A stretch of 64,000 bases of DNA from an uncultured bacterium (GCA_963934795.1 CAWWAF010000007.1:512-64511); one strand, 5' to 3'. Shown: positions 4,598 through 59,627, numbered from the stretch's first letter. Numbers and translations: made by a program. Notes: generated by a model from the letters alone, not told the origin.

Positions 4598-5701
4598 TTA
4601 CGGATGGCAGGGACGCGGCACCGACTCGCCGACATGGTAAATCGCACACTCCAGGGCACCGGACGCGTCCACCGAGACAAGACCGAACTGATTCACGATG
4701 TCGTTCGGGGGCATGGACGCACCCTGTTACACCCCTGTCCAACCACTCAGGTCCCACCCTCTGTCCGAGAAATCCGTCAGCGGATCCGAGACCGACCGAG
4801 CCAGACGACTACCGCCGGATGTACCGGAGACATTGACGCTGAGCATGTCACGCCCCCCGCGGGTGAGACGCAGGACTTCGTAGGTGTGCGTGTGTCCGGT
4901 CAACACGACATCGACACCACCGTCGATCAGTATCTCTGGCAGTGTTCGCTCGCCGTGGGCGGCGTAGGAACCATTCCAGAGACACCGGGCGTGACCCTCG
5001 TGTTTGGAGGCCGAGAGGATCGTCGTGTGGTGAAACGCGACCACCGTAGGTCCTTCCCAGGCTTGGGCCAGCTCATCGGCAAGCCAGCTCAGTTGCTCCG
5101 CCCCGCGCGCGCCAGCCGAATATCGTTCCCGGCAGGCCCCCCGGGCTGGATACACGAGATCGTTGCTGTCCAGCACCAGTAGCCGGAGCGGCCCCACGGT
5201 CTTCGCGTAATACAGGCGTTCCTCGCGAAACTGGTCGCGACCGATGACGTCGCCGAGGAATTCCACGACGTGCCCTTTCGCCGCCGTGTCGTCATCGTCA
5301 ATCTCGTGATTGCCAACGGCCAGCAGATAGGGCAACCCGTCGACCACCGACAAAATTTTCTCCAGCTGCACGAACTGGTCGCGGAAGGTGCCGTTTTCGA
5401 CGATGTCGCCGGTGTCGAGCAAGAACAGCGGCGGCGGTTCGAGCGCGCTGACCTGGCGAAGTAGCGCGTCCCATTCACCGCTCTTGGCCAGCCCCTTCTG
5501 ATCCCCGAAGATGGCAAAGCGGAACGGCGGCTGGGTCGCCTGCGTGACGCTGTCAAAGGATGGATGGGCCAACCGAGGGACCGGCTGCGAAGAACTACGG
5601 GCCCAATAGCATCCAGTAGACAGCACCACCGCCGACAACAGGCACGCCCAACGCGCCTGCGACCACATGCACCTGACCGTCGACACCTTACGCACGCTCA
5701 T
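4598..5701 (-). pseudogene. Lipoprotein calcineurin-like metallophosphoesterase interrupted by in-frame TAA at 4727-4729
   Basis: Lipobox LSTGC; FGD, DTGDIV, GNHE, FHH, GHTH motifs; the frame continues past the TAA for 42 codons (QGASMPPNDIVNQFGLVSVDASGALECAIYHV...) to TAA 4598-4600. Confidence 0.65.
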
Positions 5702-5786
5702 ATCACCAAGCGTACACGGAACCGGCCGCGACGCGCGCCCAGACCGGACCAGACGAGGGGACGTCTCTTGTGGAAACCTGATGATC

Positions 5787-5810
5787 GAACAAATGCGGAC
5801 GCGCGGCGTA
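5787..5810 (+). promoter_or_regulatory. Possible ECF sigma promoter upstream of the ABC operon
   Basis: GAAC-N16-CGTA, 20 nt before ATG 5830; short motif that could occur by chance. Confidence 0.25.
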
Positions 5811-5829
5811 TTACTGTCGAGGCGACACG

Positions 5830-6767
5830 ATGCAGACAACCATTCCGGCGGCGATTGAGTGCCACAAGCTCGTGAAGCGGTTTGCGGACAAGATCGCGGT
5901 GAACGAACTCGACCTGACGGTGCCGACGGGCAGCATCTTCGGGCTGCTCGGGCCGAACGGGTCCGGCAAGACATCGACCATCCGCACCACCCTCGGTATC
6001 TACGTGCCAGATGGCGGCTCGGTCAGTCTTCTCGGTGCCGCTGATCCGCTTGCGGTCAGGCATCGGGTCGGCTATCTCCCGGAGGAGCGCGGACTCTACG
6101 CACGGATGCGGGTTGGAGAACAGCTGGCGTTTCTCGCATCCATTCGCGGACTGGACACCCAAGAGGCGCAACGGCGCGCCGACGATTGGCTCGAACGCGT
6201 CGGACTGTCCGCCAATGCCCAGTCGCTGACGAGCGAGCTATCCAAGGGGATGCAGCAGAAGGTGTAGTTCGCAGCCGCGGTCATCCATGACCCGGACCTG
6301 ATCGTCCTCGACGAGCCCTTCACCGGGCTCGACCCGGTCAACACGCGGTTACTGAAGGAGCTGATTTTGGAACAGCACGACCGTGGCGCCACGGTGGTGA
6401 TCTCCACGCATCGTATGGAGCAGGTGGAGGCACTGTGTGACGCGATCTGCCTCATTCACAGGGCCGGCCGGTCCTGGAGGGGAATCTTGCCGCCATCAAG
6501 GCCGGCTACGGGCGAAACACCATCGCCGTCGAGTATCACGGGAGTCGGGGAACGCTCGGTGCGCTCGCCGGCATCCGGCGCTGCGAAGACACGGGGCACG
6601 AGGCCCGTCTGGAACTCGAACCGGACACGGACCCCCAGACCGTGATGCGGGCGGTGCTAGTTCGGGTAGCGATTCAGTCGATCAAGCTGGACCACTCGCA
6701 CATCGAGGAAATCTACTTGGCAACCGTCGGACACCGAGACGCCTCCCCGGAGGGAGCCACGCGATGA
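5830..6767 (+). pseudogene. ABC-2 type exporter ATP-binding subunit, broken by TAG (6265-6267) and a 1-bp deletion in the G-run at 6461-6463
   Basis: Walker A GPNGSGKT; signature LSKGMQQKV*FAAAVIHDPDLIVLDEPF (Walker B follows the stop); adding one G restores HRGRPVLEG...EEIYL to TGA 6765-6767, which overlaps the permease ATG. Confidence 0.88.
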
Positions 6768-56262: not shown

Positions 56263-56301
56263 GTAGGATGCACCCGTTGCTCAGCACGAAAGACTCCCCC
56301 C

Positions 56302-57993
56302 ATGCCGACCGTATCTGACGCGCCCACCACGCCTGAATTTCAGAAATACAGCCCGCTGATCCCGATCGTGCTCGACGATCGGACCTGGCCAAACCGACAG
56401 ATTGAGAAGGCGCCGCTGTGGTGTTCTGTCGACCTGCGCGACGGCAATCAGGCGCTGATCGACCCAATGGACGTCGAACGCAAGCGCCGCCTCTTCGGCA
56501 CGCTCGTGACGATGGGGTTCAAAGAGATCGAGGTCGGCTTCCCTGCGGCAAGCCAACCGGACTACGACTTTGTGCGGCTCTTGATCGAAGAATCGCTGAT
56601 TCCGGACGACGTCACGATTCAGGTACTGGTCCAGTGTCGACCGGAACTGCTCGAGCGGACCTACGAATGCCTTCGCGGAGCGCCTCGGGCACTCGTCCAC
56701 TTCTACAACTCGACCAATCCGCTGCAGCGGCGCGTCGTCTTCGGACTCGACAAGCCCGGCATCGTCGACATCGCCACGCGCGCGGCCGCGTTCGCCCGAA
56801 CGCTCGAGCGTACGATTCCCGACACACGGGTGCGCTACGAATACTCGCCCGAGAGCTTCACCCTGACCGAGCCGGACTTCGCCGTCGAGATCTGTGAAGC
56901 CGTCGCGGACGTCATCGAACCGGACGACGATGAACGGCGACTGGTCCTCAACCTGCCGGCGACGGTCGAATGCTACTCACCCAATGTGTACGGAGATGTC
57001 ATCGAGTGGTTCGGCCGGACCATCAAACACCGGGATCGCGTCATCCTGTCACTCCACCCCCACAATGACCGCGGCTGCGCGGTCGCCGCCGCGGAATTCG
57101 GTATCATGGCGGGGGCCGAACGCGTGGAGGGCACGCTGTTCGGCAACGGCGAACGCACCGGGAACGTCGACATCATCACGCTGGCGCTCAATCTGATGGC
57201 GAACGGCGTAGACCCGGAACTCGACGTCCGCGACATCGACGAGTTGCGCCGCGTCGCGGAGCATTGCACCCGGCTGCCCATCCCACCGCGCCAGCCATAC
57301 GCCGGCGACCTCGTGTACACCTCGTTCTCGGGCTCCCACCAGGACGCCATCAAGAAGGGCTTTGCGGCGCTCCCCGACAACTACGAGAGCTGGGCCGTGC
57401 CCTATCTGCCGATCGATCCCAAACACGTCGGGCGCAGCTACGAGGCCGTGGTTCGCGTCAACAGCCAATCCGGTAAGGGCGGCGTCGCCTACATCATGGA
57501 GACCGAGCATGGGCTGGTGCTGCCGAGGCGCTTACAGATCGAGTTCTCGCGCGCCATTCAGTCAATGGCGGAGGACGCGGGCACCGAAGTCAGCCCTGAG
57601 GACATCTGGCTCGCATTTGAAGCCACCTACCTGGCAGAAGATGCCCCGATCCAGATCCGCAGCCACGACGGAGTGACCGGGTCGGACGGCGCGCGGGTGA
57701 CCGTGCGCCTCCGAGTGGACGGCGCGGACCGCACCGTTACCGGTGCCGGAAACGGGCCTATCTCGGCGTTCGTCGATGGCCTGGTTCGCGGCTTGGACCT
57801 GACATTGGATGTTCACGACTACACCGAACACTCGATCACGGCCGGCTCCGACGCGCGAGCGGTCGCCTACGTCGAAGCCGAAGGCGACCAGGAGATCGTG
57901 CGCTGGGGTGTCGGTATCGACCAGAGCATTCTCGGCGCGTCACTGAAGGCCGTGGTCAGCGCAGTCAATCGTCTGCGTGCCGCCACCACCTAG
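56302..57993 (+). CDS. leuA: 2-isopropylmalate synthase (yeast/actinobacterial type)
   Basis: [62 protein letters not shown]. Confidence 0.96.
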
Positions 57994-58061
57994 CCAGGTT
58001 GGCCGGTGGACGTGCAGAGCCACTGCGCCTGCCCCGTTTCCCGGGGTGATAGCATCCCGCC

Positions 58062-59627
58062 GTGGCCGAGAACGAGCCCTCGGGCCGGCACGATGCGACG
58101 CGGCCAGGCGAGACCCCGCGGCGGGAACCGAGCCCACCGATCGGCCGACGCCTGATCGGGGCGATGCTGCGCGAGCGCGTGGCGGTGCTGTATGTCGCCG
58201 CCATCCTCATCATCGTCCGCACCGCGGTTTTCCTGTTCTTCGAAGGCTCCTTCAATTCCGACTAGGCCGTCACCGGGCTCATGACCACCCACCTCATCGA
58301 GAGGCGGGCCTTCCCGGTGTTCAAATATGGCCAGGACTATCAGCTGGCGGTCCAAGTGTGGATGGCCGCTCCTTTGTTCATGTTGTTCGGCCCGTCCGAG
58401 TTCCTGCTCCGACTGCCGCTCTTGGTCCAGCTGTTGCAGCGTGAGCTGCGTCTGCGCCCGTGGATGGCGCTTCTTGTCGCCACCCCGTTTCTGCTAGCGC
58501 CGCCCGGCACGTCGATGCAACTCATCGAGCCTAGCGGGGGCAACGTCGAACCGTTGCTCATGGTCCCACTCCTCTGGCTACTGCGACTGCATCCGCTGAC
58601 TTTCGGGGCGGTGCTGGCGGTGGGCTTCCTGCAGCGCGTCTTCGCGGTCTACGCCCTGGGTGCATTGCTACTCGTCGAACTGGCAGACGGCTCACTGTTC
58701 TCACGCGCCACCGCGACGCGGTATCTGCGCTCGGCGTTCGCGTTTGCCGCAGTCTGGCAGACCATCGGGCTCGTCCGCGCGGCGGCCGGGAGCGACTTCG
58801 GCCCATCAACTCCGGTCTTCACGTCCGCCGCCTCCTCGTCAAATGTGAATGAAGCGTTGGGACGTTTCTGTTGGGACCCGGGGGGACTCCCTCACCGGAT
58901 TGGCCAGCTCTTTGGCGACCATCTGGCCACGATGTTCGGTGGACGCCGCGTGCAGCTCTCGGGTCTGGGTGTGCCGAGTGCTAGCGAACAGGGTATCGAC
59001 GGGCTGTGGCTGCTGGTCGGGGGCGTCTTGCTGTGTGCGGTGGCGCGACTCCTCTGGAGGACGGCGCGGGGCCAGATACGCCCCTGGCACGGGCGACCGC
59101 AGTTCGCCCTGTATCTGTTCTTGACCGGCGTACTGACGGTCGGCGCGCTGCTGACCTCACGCTGCGGATCGCTCGACGTCCACACCCTGCGATACACCCT
59201 GCACACCCTGCTGGCCGTGATCGGACTCGTAGCCGCCTTTTTGGCCACCGAGCCGTCGCAGGGCGCTAGACGGCTGGTCGTGTCCGTGCTGGCGGTCTGG
59301 GCCCTCGCGGCGGTGTGGGGACACGGTCGTCTGCTAGCGGAGTTCGCGCGTGACCCACCGCAGGACCACAATCGGGCCCTGGCGCAGTATCTCGTTGACC
59401 ACGACATCCGGTACGGGTTTGCCGACTATTGGGACGCGTACAGCACCGTCTTCTGGGCCGATGAACAGGTAATTTTGACCTCGACGACGGTGGTGTTCAT
59501 CACGGAATACGAACGGCTGGCCCTCGAACACCTGGATGAAGCCGTCTGGATCTATCGGGAACCGTGCGACGGAGGCACGCGCGTCACCGAGATTCACTAC
59601 ATGTGCGGTCCGAAAGCACAAGAGTGA
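58062..59627 (+). pseudogene. Polytopic membrane protein, GT-C (ArnT/PMT-like) glycosyltransferase type, interrupted by TAG at 58263-58265
   Basis: ORFs 58062-58265 and 58281-59627 are in frame (FNSD*AVTGLM...YGQDY); about 11 TM segments plus a YGFADYW soluble tail. Confidence 0.7.

Follow-up and report, generated by a model that had tools for sequence, protein, structure and literature searches.

In-frame stop codons interrupt five genes in a 64,000-nucleotide (nt) stretch of DNA from an uncultured bacterium (GCA_963934795.1, CAWWAF010000007.1:512–64511; hereafter the window), and the question which this locus raises is whether these genes are truly dead and, if so, what kind of decay they record. 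A first-pass annotation, made from the sequence alone, had read them as early, genome-wide reduction, its mutation spectrum biased by deamination, in a lineage that had lately become host-restricted (a sponge associate, for example), and had named consensus or assembly error as the alternative. We consider another answer likely: the window carries true pseudogenes of a free-living marine acidobacterium, in which dispensable genes for envelope and export functions have undergone ordinary decay, and the glutaminyl cyclase gene is probably among these pseudogenes. The affected loci are listed here, with G001 denoting a sister species and bp base pairs.

4598–5701, minus strand: MPE1, an exported calcineurin-like metallophosphoesterase (Pfam Metallophos), truncated by TAA at 4727–4729 with loss of its last 42 codons.
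4890–4891, unstranded: polymorphic 2-bp GT indel inside MPE1, in a short (GT) repeat with the context GTGTGCGTGTGT.
5830–6767, plus strand: ABC-2-type exporter ATPase pseudogene, with TAG at 6265–6267 in the signature motif and a 1-nt deletion at about 6458–6461.
11693–11887, plus strand: 3' remnant, 66 codons long, of a Ser/Thr protein kinase (tblastn with the G001 kinase gives 88% identity over residues 437–502).
17392–19848, minus strand: TonB-dependent-receptor-like outer-membrane protein (CarboxypepD_reg, plug and beta-barrel, by Pfam), split by TGA at 17911–17913.
42359–43234, minus strand: glutaminyl cyclase (Pfam Glu_cyclase_2, E=9e-85), with TGA at codon 6 (43217–43219).
58152–59627, plus strand: multi-pass membrane protein, with TAG at 58263–58265, where the ancestor had CAG, and with 30 bp deleted in frame at about 58425.

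The host genome (G000) is a 3.87-Mb assembly of 202 contigs, with 64.6% G+C and an estimated completeness of 96.5%, in which the window corresponds to C7:512–64511. About 55 genes are called in the window by codon usage, with a gene caller trained on the genome itself. Their Pfam content is chiefly that of peripheral enzymes and exported proteins, including several PQQ-type dehydrogenases, beta-propellers, hydrolases, an amidase, a patatin and cyclases. By Pfam the genes icd (a monomeric isocitrate dehydrogenase), leuA and pepE (an S51 peptidase) are intact, as the first-pass annotation had stated and as family scan and sequence check confirm; its further statement that the damage is confined to accessory genes is borne out, these three housekeeping genes being undamaged. 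The best named relatives of icd are in metagenome-assembled genomes (MAGs) of the Acidobacteriota, namely Vicinamibacterales (76%) and Thermoanaerobaculia (72%). The sister species G001 is about 95% identical to the host genome; its alignment covers window positions 1–9709 and 10498–51987, and its contig C59 covers 54755 to the window end.

The five in-frame stops that had been reported are all present, and on translation the frame stays open past each of them (4727–4729, 6265–6267, 17911–17913, 43217–43219 and 58263–58265). Intact orthologues which read through were found for all five interrupted genes, in two to five genomes of the genus or family. The stops were polarised by reading the orthologous DNA from same-genus and same-family genomes at each site. 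Sense codons occupy positions 4727, 6265, 17911 and 58263 in two to five related genomes, and G001 has sense codons at 4727, 17911 and 58263.

The lesions were then sought in public assemblies, through either the exact truncated products or intact neighbour genes, and the DNA was compared; the material in each case was assembled contigs and not reads. The window contig matches TARA_SAMEA4397355_METAG-scaffold_136 (64,678 bp), from which the compared stretches differ by a 2-bp indel at 4890–4891 and a few substitutions. At least 12 other assemblies have contigs with 99.0–100% identity to the window (one more contig, L119, has 98.0%), and identity is 99.4–100% in independent assemblies in which the same lesions recur. 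Near-identical contigs came from the following sources.

ENA assemblies: ERZ23487341, ERZ23487494, ERZ27292831, ERZ27292956, ERZ27292794, ERZ27332924, ERZ7463457, ERZ6113428, ERZ24888581 (FRAM_RAS_F4_03_2017) and ERZ2783020.
JGI and Logan sources: 3300046467 and 3300061740; ERR3589570, ERR12117673, ERR12117676 and SRR28417438.

By their records these metagenomes are from the water column, among them those of Tara Oceans and of the Fram Strait RAS seawater series. The FRAM RAS F4 metagenomes derive from 0.22-µm-filtered seawater collected at 20–110 m in the eastern Fram Strait, sequenced by PacBio HiFi and assembled with metaFlye (PMC11790911). To judge from their record names, loci L127 and L154 would belong to this HiFi series.

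The exact 145-residue product that ends at TAG 6265 is encoded on 14 contigs from other samples, and TAG is present in nine of the nine loci retrieved; the ABC frameshift site is identical to that of the window in L115–L118 and L121. The exact 63-nt context of TGA 17911 occurs in L124, L125, L153, L154, L155 and the Tara scaffold, with four independent loci among them, one on a contig named FRAM_RAS_F4. TGA 43217 is unaltered in all seven other contigs, the adjacent codon 5 being polymorphic (CAA or CGA), and the context of TAG 58263 is exact in four of four (L113, L114, L156 and L157). All sampled members of the species share most of the lesions, those of MPE1 being still polymorphic.

In the ABC ATPase gene the TAG sits within the signature LSKGMQQKV*FAAAVIHDPDLIVLDEP (LSKGMQQKV*F), and the Pfam ABC_tran domain spans the stop. 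The first-pass annotation had stated that the consensus of the ABC family clearly has Gln here; the codon is indeed CAG in G010 and is AAG (Lys) in G002, the nearest intact relative. It had also placed a homopolymer frameshift at 6461. The frameshift is real, a 1-nt deletion relative to both G002 and G010, though it does not lie in a homopolymer: the orthologues read ATTCA[T]CA, and the site is CA[T/C]CA. Behind it the last 102 codons run in another frame to a stop at 6765–6767. One strain carries a second stop in this gene (E177>TAG). The gene that follows is undamaged.

6764–8041, plus strand: ABC-2 permease, intact, with a full-length Pfam ABC2_membrane_3 match and an ATG which overlaps the stop of the dead ATPase (ATGA).

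G001 has the same TAG and the same frameshift as the window. Between 6001 and 7600, a block which spans the dead ATPase and half of the permease, the comparison with G001:C42 shows 0 substitutions over 1.6 kb against a background of 4–5%, together with three 1-nt deletions in G001.

The TGA at 17911 divides the receptor-like protein into 645 and 163 residues (C-terminus LGFGF), and here too the Pfam domains span the stop. The site is Arg in five orthologues, CGC in G002, G004 and G005 and CGG in G001 and G006; TGA is two transitions away from the Arg codon, and the preceding AGC is also now AGT. In C CGG > T TGA, at 17911–17916, three of the four adjacent bases are not those of the sister species. 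A single multi-nucleotide event, AGC CGG > AGT TGA, was considered for this site and dropped: two of the steps are of synonymous type, and the synonymous divergence (dS) of the gene is 0.15–0.22, which makes independent changes plausible. The receptor-like gene of G001 has lesions of its own elsewhere, a TAG (Q558) and a 1-nt deletion.

MPE1 presents a population in several states. Site 4727 is Ser in the orthologues, TCA in G001 and TCG in G010, and is TCA as well in four conspecific contigs (L117–L120); TAA is carried by the window, L115 and L116, so the site is polymorphic within the population. The stop arose by transversion, C>A in TCA>TAA, and not from CAA. The 42 C-terminal codons behind it are conserved in G001 and G010, which run on to the downstream stop. 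The GT at 4890–4891, an indel site which the first-pass annotation had missed, is kept in the window, L116 and G001 and is absent from L115, L117, L118 and L120; its deletion frameshifts MPE1 in these other population members. The combinations met with are TAA only (window and L116), TAA with loss of one GT from GTGTGCGTGTGT (the deposited Tara scaffold), ancestral TCA with the same 2-bp loss (L117, L118 and L120), and TCA with other indels (L119, a divergent strain). The contig of the genome and the deposited Tara scaffold_136 disagree at GT 4890–4891, which is precisely a population-polymorphic site.

In the membrane-protein gene TAG 58263 lies in the conserved block FEGSFNSD*AVTGLM. The codon is CAG in G001, G003 and G006, which gives a C>T change; a GAG (Glu) ancestor was considered and is ruled out by these orthologues. 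A 30-bp deletion at about 58425, which the first-pass annotation had missed, removes FVNIGLATLL in frame relative to the same three genomes. The protein gave no Pfam or NCBIfam match above threshold. At a glance it may resemble the GT-C glycosyltransferases. A possible restart for the downstream frame is ATG 58281 (448 residues). The G001 gene carries a frameshift and a 1.44-kb insertion which encodes a 429-residue transposase (C59, L020 9050–10336); the window has no transposase at the matching place.

The start region of the cyclase gene is homologous in G002, G004 and G005: the window's ATG-GCG-CGC-AAA-CAA-TGA corresponds to ATG-ACG-CGC-AGG-CGA-CGG in G005. What had been offered only as a probable stop at 43217 is by this homology codon 6 of the ancestral reading frame. 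As codons 5 and 6 of G005 are CGA-CGG, the TGA probably arose from CGG, for which two changes are needed. Further alleles circulate, W228>TGA in one contig and W228R in another, and in G001 the 5' 60% of the gene is gone. The frame after the TGA is open, with a possible restart at TTG 43159 (266 residues), and the Pfam domain (residues 55–289) lies wholly behind the stop. Because the window's own lesion is at codon 6 only, the disablement of this gene is less certain than that of the others.

At the kinase remnant 2.3 kb are missing from the window; the G001 counterpart codes for an ECF sigma factor and for the complete Ser/Thr kinase. The deletion also took the 5' end of the neighbouring gene at 10942–11940, a point missed earlier. 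Three truncated remnants had been proposed; the one at 11720 is real, being this kinase 3' end, and those at 20050 and 49290 have neither a family match nor a counterpart gene in G001, their open reading frames (ORFs) being antisense to real genes or intergenic.

Several genes have been damaged more than once: the ABC gene by stop and frameshift, the membrane-protein gene by stop and 30-bp deletion, MPE1 by at least three combinations of lesions, and the cyclase gene additionally by W228*. In the sister species G001 the genes for the receptor-like protein, the membrane protein and the cyclase were inactivated by lesions other than those in the window. With changes polarised by outgroups, the ratio of nonsynonymous to synonymous changes (N:S) on the window branch is 34:54 in three clearly broken genes; three neighbours which are intact give 16:56 (p=0.027, odds ratio 2.2), and the median ratio of nonsynonymous to synonymous divergence (dN/dS) against G001 is 0.12 for 35 intact genes within the window.

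For a view of the genome as a whole, 20 segments of 20 kb were drawn at random from G001; 374 kb could be aligned, at 94.9% identity, and 347 orthologues were scanned protein-to-DNA. On the side of the window's genome the raw tblastn scan flagged 11 stops and 16 candidate frameshifts, a list which inspection then shortened. Many of the stops were start-call artefacts (within the first 45 codons), one stop was junk upstream of a YgiQ-like gene, and one frameshift was a tpiA–secG fusion on the G001 side. Credible lineage-specific broken genes outside the window amount to about 3–5 of some 290 orthologues, or about 1–2%, and include genes for an RsbU-like phosphatase, a pyridine-nucleotide-disulfide oxidoreductase, an outer-membrane protein and a MacB-like permease. 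The coding density of the genome is 89.5%. Within the window 3 of about 50 orthologues are broken in a lineage-specific way versus about 4 of about 290 elsewhere (Fisher p=0.07; other ways of counting take p down to 0.01). Since the window was picked for its lesions, this raised density is no significant excess, and we regard it as a local cluster, situated among accessory genes. An excess of adjacent ORF pairs in the same frame (299 versus 237 and 241) was tried as a genome-wide test and rejected as confounded, since the gene caller is unable to place an overlapping start in frame 0. The relaxed selection which the first-pass annotation had supposed is supported in the broken genes (34:54 versus 16:56). 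Early reduction of the whole genome is not supported: the genome is 89.5% coding and has few broken genes elsewhere.

The mutation spectrum bears directly on the proposed deamination bias. The claim that each stop is a single C>T step holds for 58263 and possibly for 6265 (where the ancestor was CAG or AAG); the TGAs at 17911 and 43217 are two-step and 4727 is C>A. Both TGA stops (17911–17916 and, probably, 43217–43222) derive from CGG or CGC Arg codons, by two changes each. Given the codon usage of the host genome, C>T/G>A changes should make up 28% of nonsense mutations if there were no transition bias and 52% at the bias observed (ts/tv, the ratio of transitions to transversions, 1.40). The stops of this type number 4 of 5 in the window (p=0.21) and 13 of 18 over both genomes (p=0.07). 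Such a predominance is to be expected from transition bias together with codon usage, and no special mutational process is needed.

A general asymmetry between the two species does exist. Among transition differences over the 374 kb aligned, the window's genome has the A/T state at 6274 and the reverse holds at 4905; its G+C content is 64.6% versus 64.9% in G001. Polarised GC>AT:AT>GC counts are 106:23 on the window branch versus 66:35 on that of G001 (p=0.006), although parsimony polarisation inflates GC>AT counts in GC-rich genomes. A mutation bias from GC to AT is general in bacteria. Loss of uracil or 8-oxoguanine repair was examined as a cause and rejected: the genome, like its relatives, has uracil-DNA glycosylase (UDG, two copies) and a MutY-like gene, so that loss of repair does not explain the asymmetry. 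Position 58263 is the inner C of CCAGG (ancestral GAC CAG GCC), as had been suggested when a check of methylation motifs was proposed; the other four stops lie outside the motif. Inner-C positions of CCWGG do not form a hotspot, with C>T-type differences of 2.18% versus 2.58% for all C/G. A search of the 96.5%-complete genome with PF00145 for a C5 cytosine methyltransferase was negative, and control genomes gave matches. With no PF00145 methyltransferase, no CCWGG hotspot and both UDG and the MutY-like gene in place, the deamination-biased signature finds no support.

How, then, do the explanations compare? That the stops and the frameshift are assembly or consensus errors of a low-coverage or long-read metagenome is now very hard to believe. 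The host genome is admittedly a MAG in 202 contigs, and the window contig and the deposited Tara scaffold do differ by a 2-bp indel inside MPE1, one of the affected genes. Against this, the lesions recur base for base across samples and, by record names, across assemblers (k119/k141-, NODE- and scaffold-style contigs, Logan and FRAM HiFi), housekeeping genes are spared, and several genes bear at least two independent lesions. The same lesions in independent assemblies of other samples refute this alternative. To a programmed recoding of the stops, with TGA read as selenocysteine (Sec) or the stops suppressed by a dedicated tRNA, we give practically no credence. The genome does encode a tRNA-Sec, but this is the only special tRNA, and none with a CUA or UUA anticodon is present; the window has no Rfam match; the sequences downstream of the TGAs fold like shuffled sequence (z = -0.03 and -0.9); the orthologues have Arg, and neither Cys nor Sec, at both TGA sites; and all three types of stop codon are involved.

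Genome-wide reduction in a recently host-restricted lineage seems to us decidedly improbable. The genome, at about 4.0 Mb, is among the smallest of its genus, and there is more GC>AT change on the window lineage than on its sister, by both of the counts given above. The sources, however, are seawater, from Tara Oceans and from a Fram Strait mooring at 20–110 m, which speaks against a host-restricted or sponge origin. A genome that is 89.5% coding, has about 1–2% of its genes broken in a random sample of some 390 kb and shows a median dN/dS of 0.12 in the window gives no support to early reduction throughout, and the case from mutation fares no better: one of the five stops is a transversion, neither a C5-methyltransferase nor a CCWGG hotspot was found, and UDG and the MutY-like gene are intact. 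A more serious contender, though still one that we think unlikely, is that some of the interrupted genes still function in shortened form, the candidates being the cyclase (from TTG 43159), the membrane protein (from ATG 58281) and MPE1 less 42 residues; their stops would then be tolerated trims. The downstream ORFs are open in nearly all population contigs, gene callers report the 266- and 448-residue products, and the cyclase domain is entirely behind the stop. Yet the shortened cyclase would drop the charged N-region of its signal anchor, and the W228* and W228R alleles circulate; the membrane protein would be short of its first helix as well as of the conserved FEGSFNSDQAVTGLM block, and the 30-bp deletion hits a hydrophobic segment; the sister species destroyed both of these genes; and the 42 C-terminal residues of MPE1 are conserved in G001 and G010, other strains being frameshifted.

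Decay of true pseudogenes remains the explanation that we prefer, and several points weigh against it. Loss of function is deduced here from gene sequence: the cyclase and the membrane protein could restart, and MPE1 could act without only 42 residues. The raised N:S of the broken genes may in part reflect intrinsically weaker constraint on them. For the receptor-like gene the comparison with G001 still gives a low dN/dS, 0.14–0.17, so that its inactivation must be recent. Given the absence of substitutions from 6001 to 7600, the ABC lesions common to the window and G001 may stem from recent recombination or from a mosaic contig and not from common descent. Finally, G001 contains many clustered 1-nt indels, often in short C runs, by which five to six genes in a row are frameshifted and tpiA is joined to secG (contigs C42 and C18; loci L013–L016 and L150). 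This suggests assembly errors in its public genome rather than biology, and weakens the frameshift calls in G001; its insertion sequence, 5' deletion and TAG are unaffected.

With these reservations, the pseudogenes of the window probably came about as follows. Exported and envelope functions would have become dispensable in a planktonic clade, and purifying selection upon them would have lapsed. Each gene has been struck by ordinary spontaneous mutation, whether nonsense, a 1-nt or 2-bp slippage deletion, or a deletion of 30 bp or 2.3 kb. The broken genes would now be decaying by drift, with the rest of the genome under normal constraint. One might go further and suppose that the parallel loss of receptor-like, membrane-protein, cyclase and ABC-2 ATPase genes in two pelagic Arctic sisters is the coordinated loss of one module after a recent planktonic shift; we put this forward tentatively and as the less probable course. 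Such a loss may have been accompanied by a lineage-specific rise of GC>AT change in the window's species. If the loss was that of a module, the metagenomes of this population offer a natural time series of gene loss underway.

There are practical consequences as well. By exact-protein look-up of the truncated products in independent assemblies, the lesions of a MAG can be confirmed even where no reads are used. Annotators should treat split ORFs of this kind as genuine pseudogenes, neither errors to be polished away nor cases of recoding, and the window is unsuited as evidence for symbiont-like genome erosion. Among planktonic Acidobacteriota of the Arctic Ocean, losses of envelope genes are found which are polymorphic and parallel, and these could be tracked in existing time-series metagenomes.

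Several differences in gene content between the window and G001 were observed in passing. An MbtH-like gene (2526–2801, Pfam E=3e-23) adjoins a gene for a 4'-phosphopantetheinyl transferase, with no nonribosomal peptide synthetase gene nearby, and a 300-bp segment (2559–2859) that includes most of it is missing in G001. A Kelch-repeat gene (28140–29228, in the window-only segment 28144–29244) and a PQQ_2 beta-propeller gene (45065–46432, in the window-only segment 45204–46490) are both cleanly absent from G001. At window 21934–22082 G001 has an extra 5.1 kb which encodes a 900-residue Ser/Thr kinase and, judged by eye, a probable HNH endonuclease; also by eye, the C-terminal domain of this kinase resembles a TolB-type beta-propeller. 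A second transposase of G001, of 358 residues (G001:C63 45982–47058), stands where synteny with the window ends (after 51987) and is likewise without a counterpart in the window.

Four known systems invite comparison. Amber hotspots at CCAGG in E. coli lacI reportedly result from deamination of 5-methylcytosine at Dcm sites, as Coulondre and colleagues are said to have described in 1978. The CAG>TAG change at 58263 has this classical context; the host genome is without PF00145, its inner-C transitions are not raised, and the other four stops are off the motif. MPE1 calls to mind phase-variable simple-sequence loci, in that its frame is switched when a (GT) repeat gains or loses 2 bp, and both states circulate. 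The repeat, however, has three units only, L115 joins the deletion with TAA, and L119 has further indels; so few units and such combinations of lesions argue for decay rather than reversible switching.

The recently host-restricted reducers include Mycobacterium leprae, Sodalis, Shigella and some sponge symbionts. The window is like them in that stops, frameshifts and deletions pile up in non-essential genes with an AT-ward skew; it differs in the coding density of its genome (89.5%), the small share of genes broken elsewhere (about 1–2%), the low dN/dS and the seawater source. The closest parallel is with the pseudogenes of free-living bacteria, which make up a few per cent of genes and are short-lived, lineage-specific and mostly accessory. 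Bacterial pseudogenes have reportedly been surveyed by Liu and colleagues (in 2004) and by Kuo and Ochman (in 2010). The window agrees with the free-living pattern in its nonsense, frameshift and deletion lesions in dispensable genes, lineage-specific or polymorphic, in a sister species struck independently, and in normal constraint elsewhere. There is no essential difference; what is new is the bearer, an uncultured pelagic acidobacterium of the Arctic, and the view of its population over many metagenomes.

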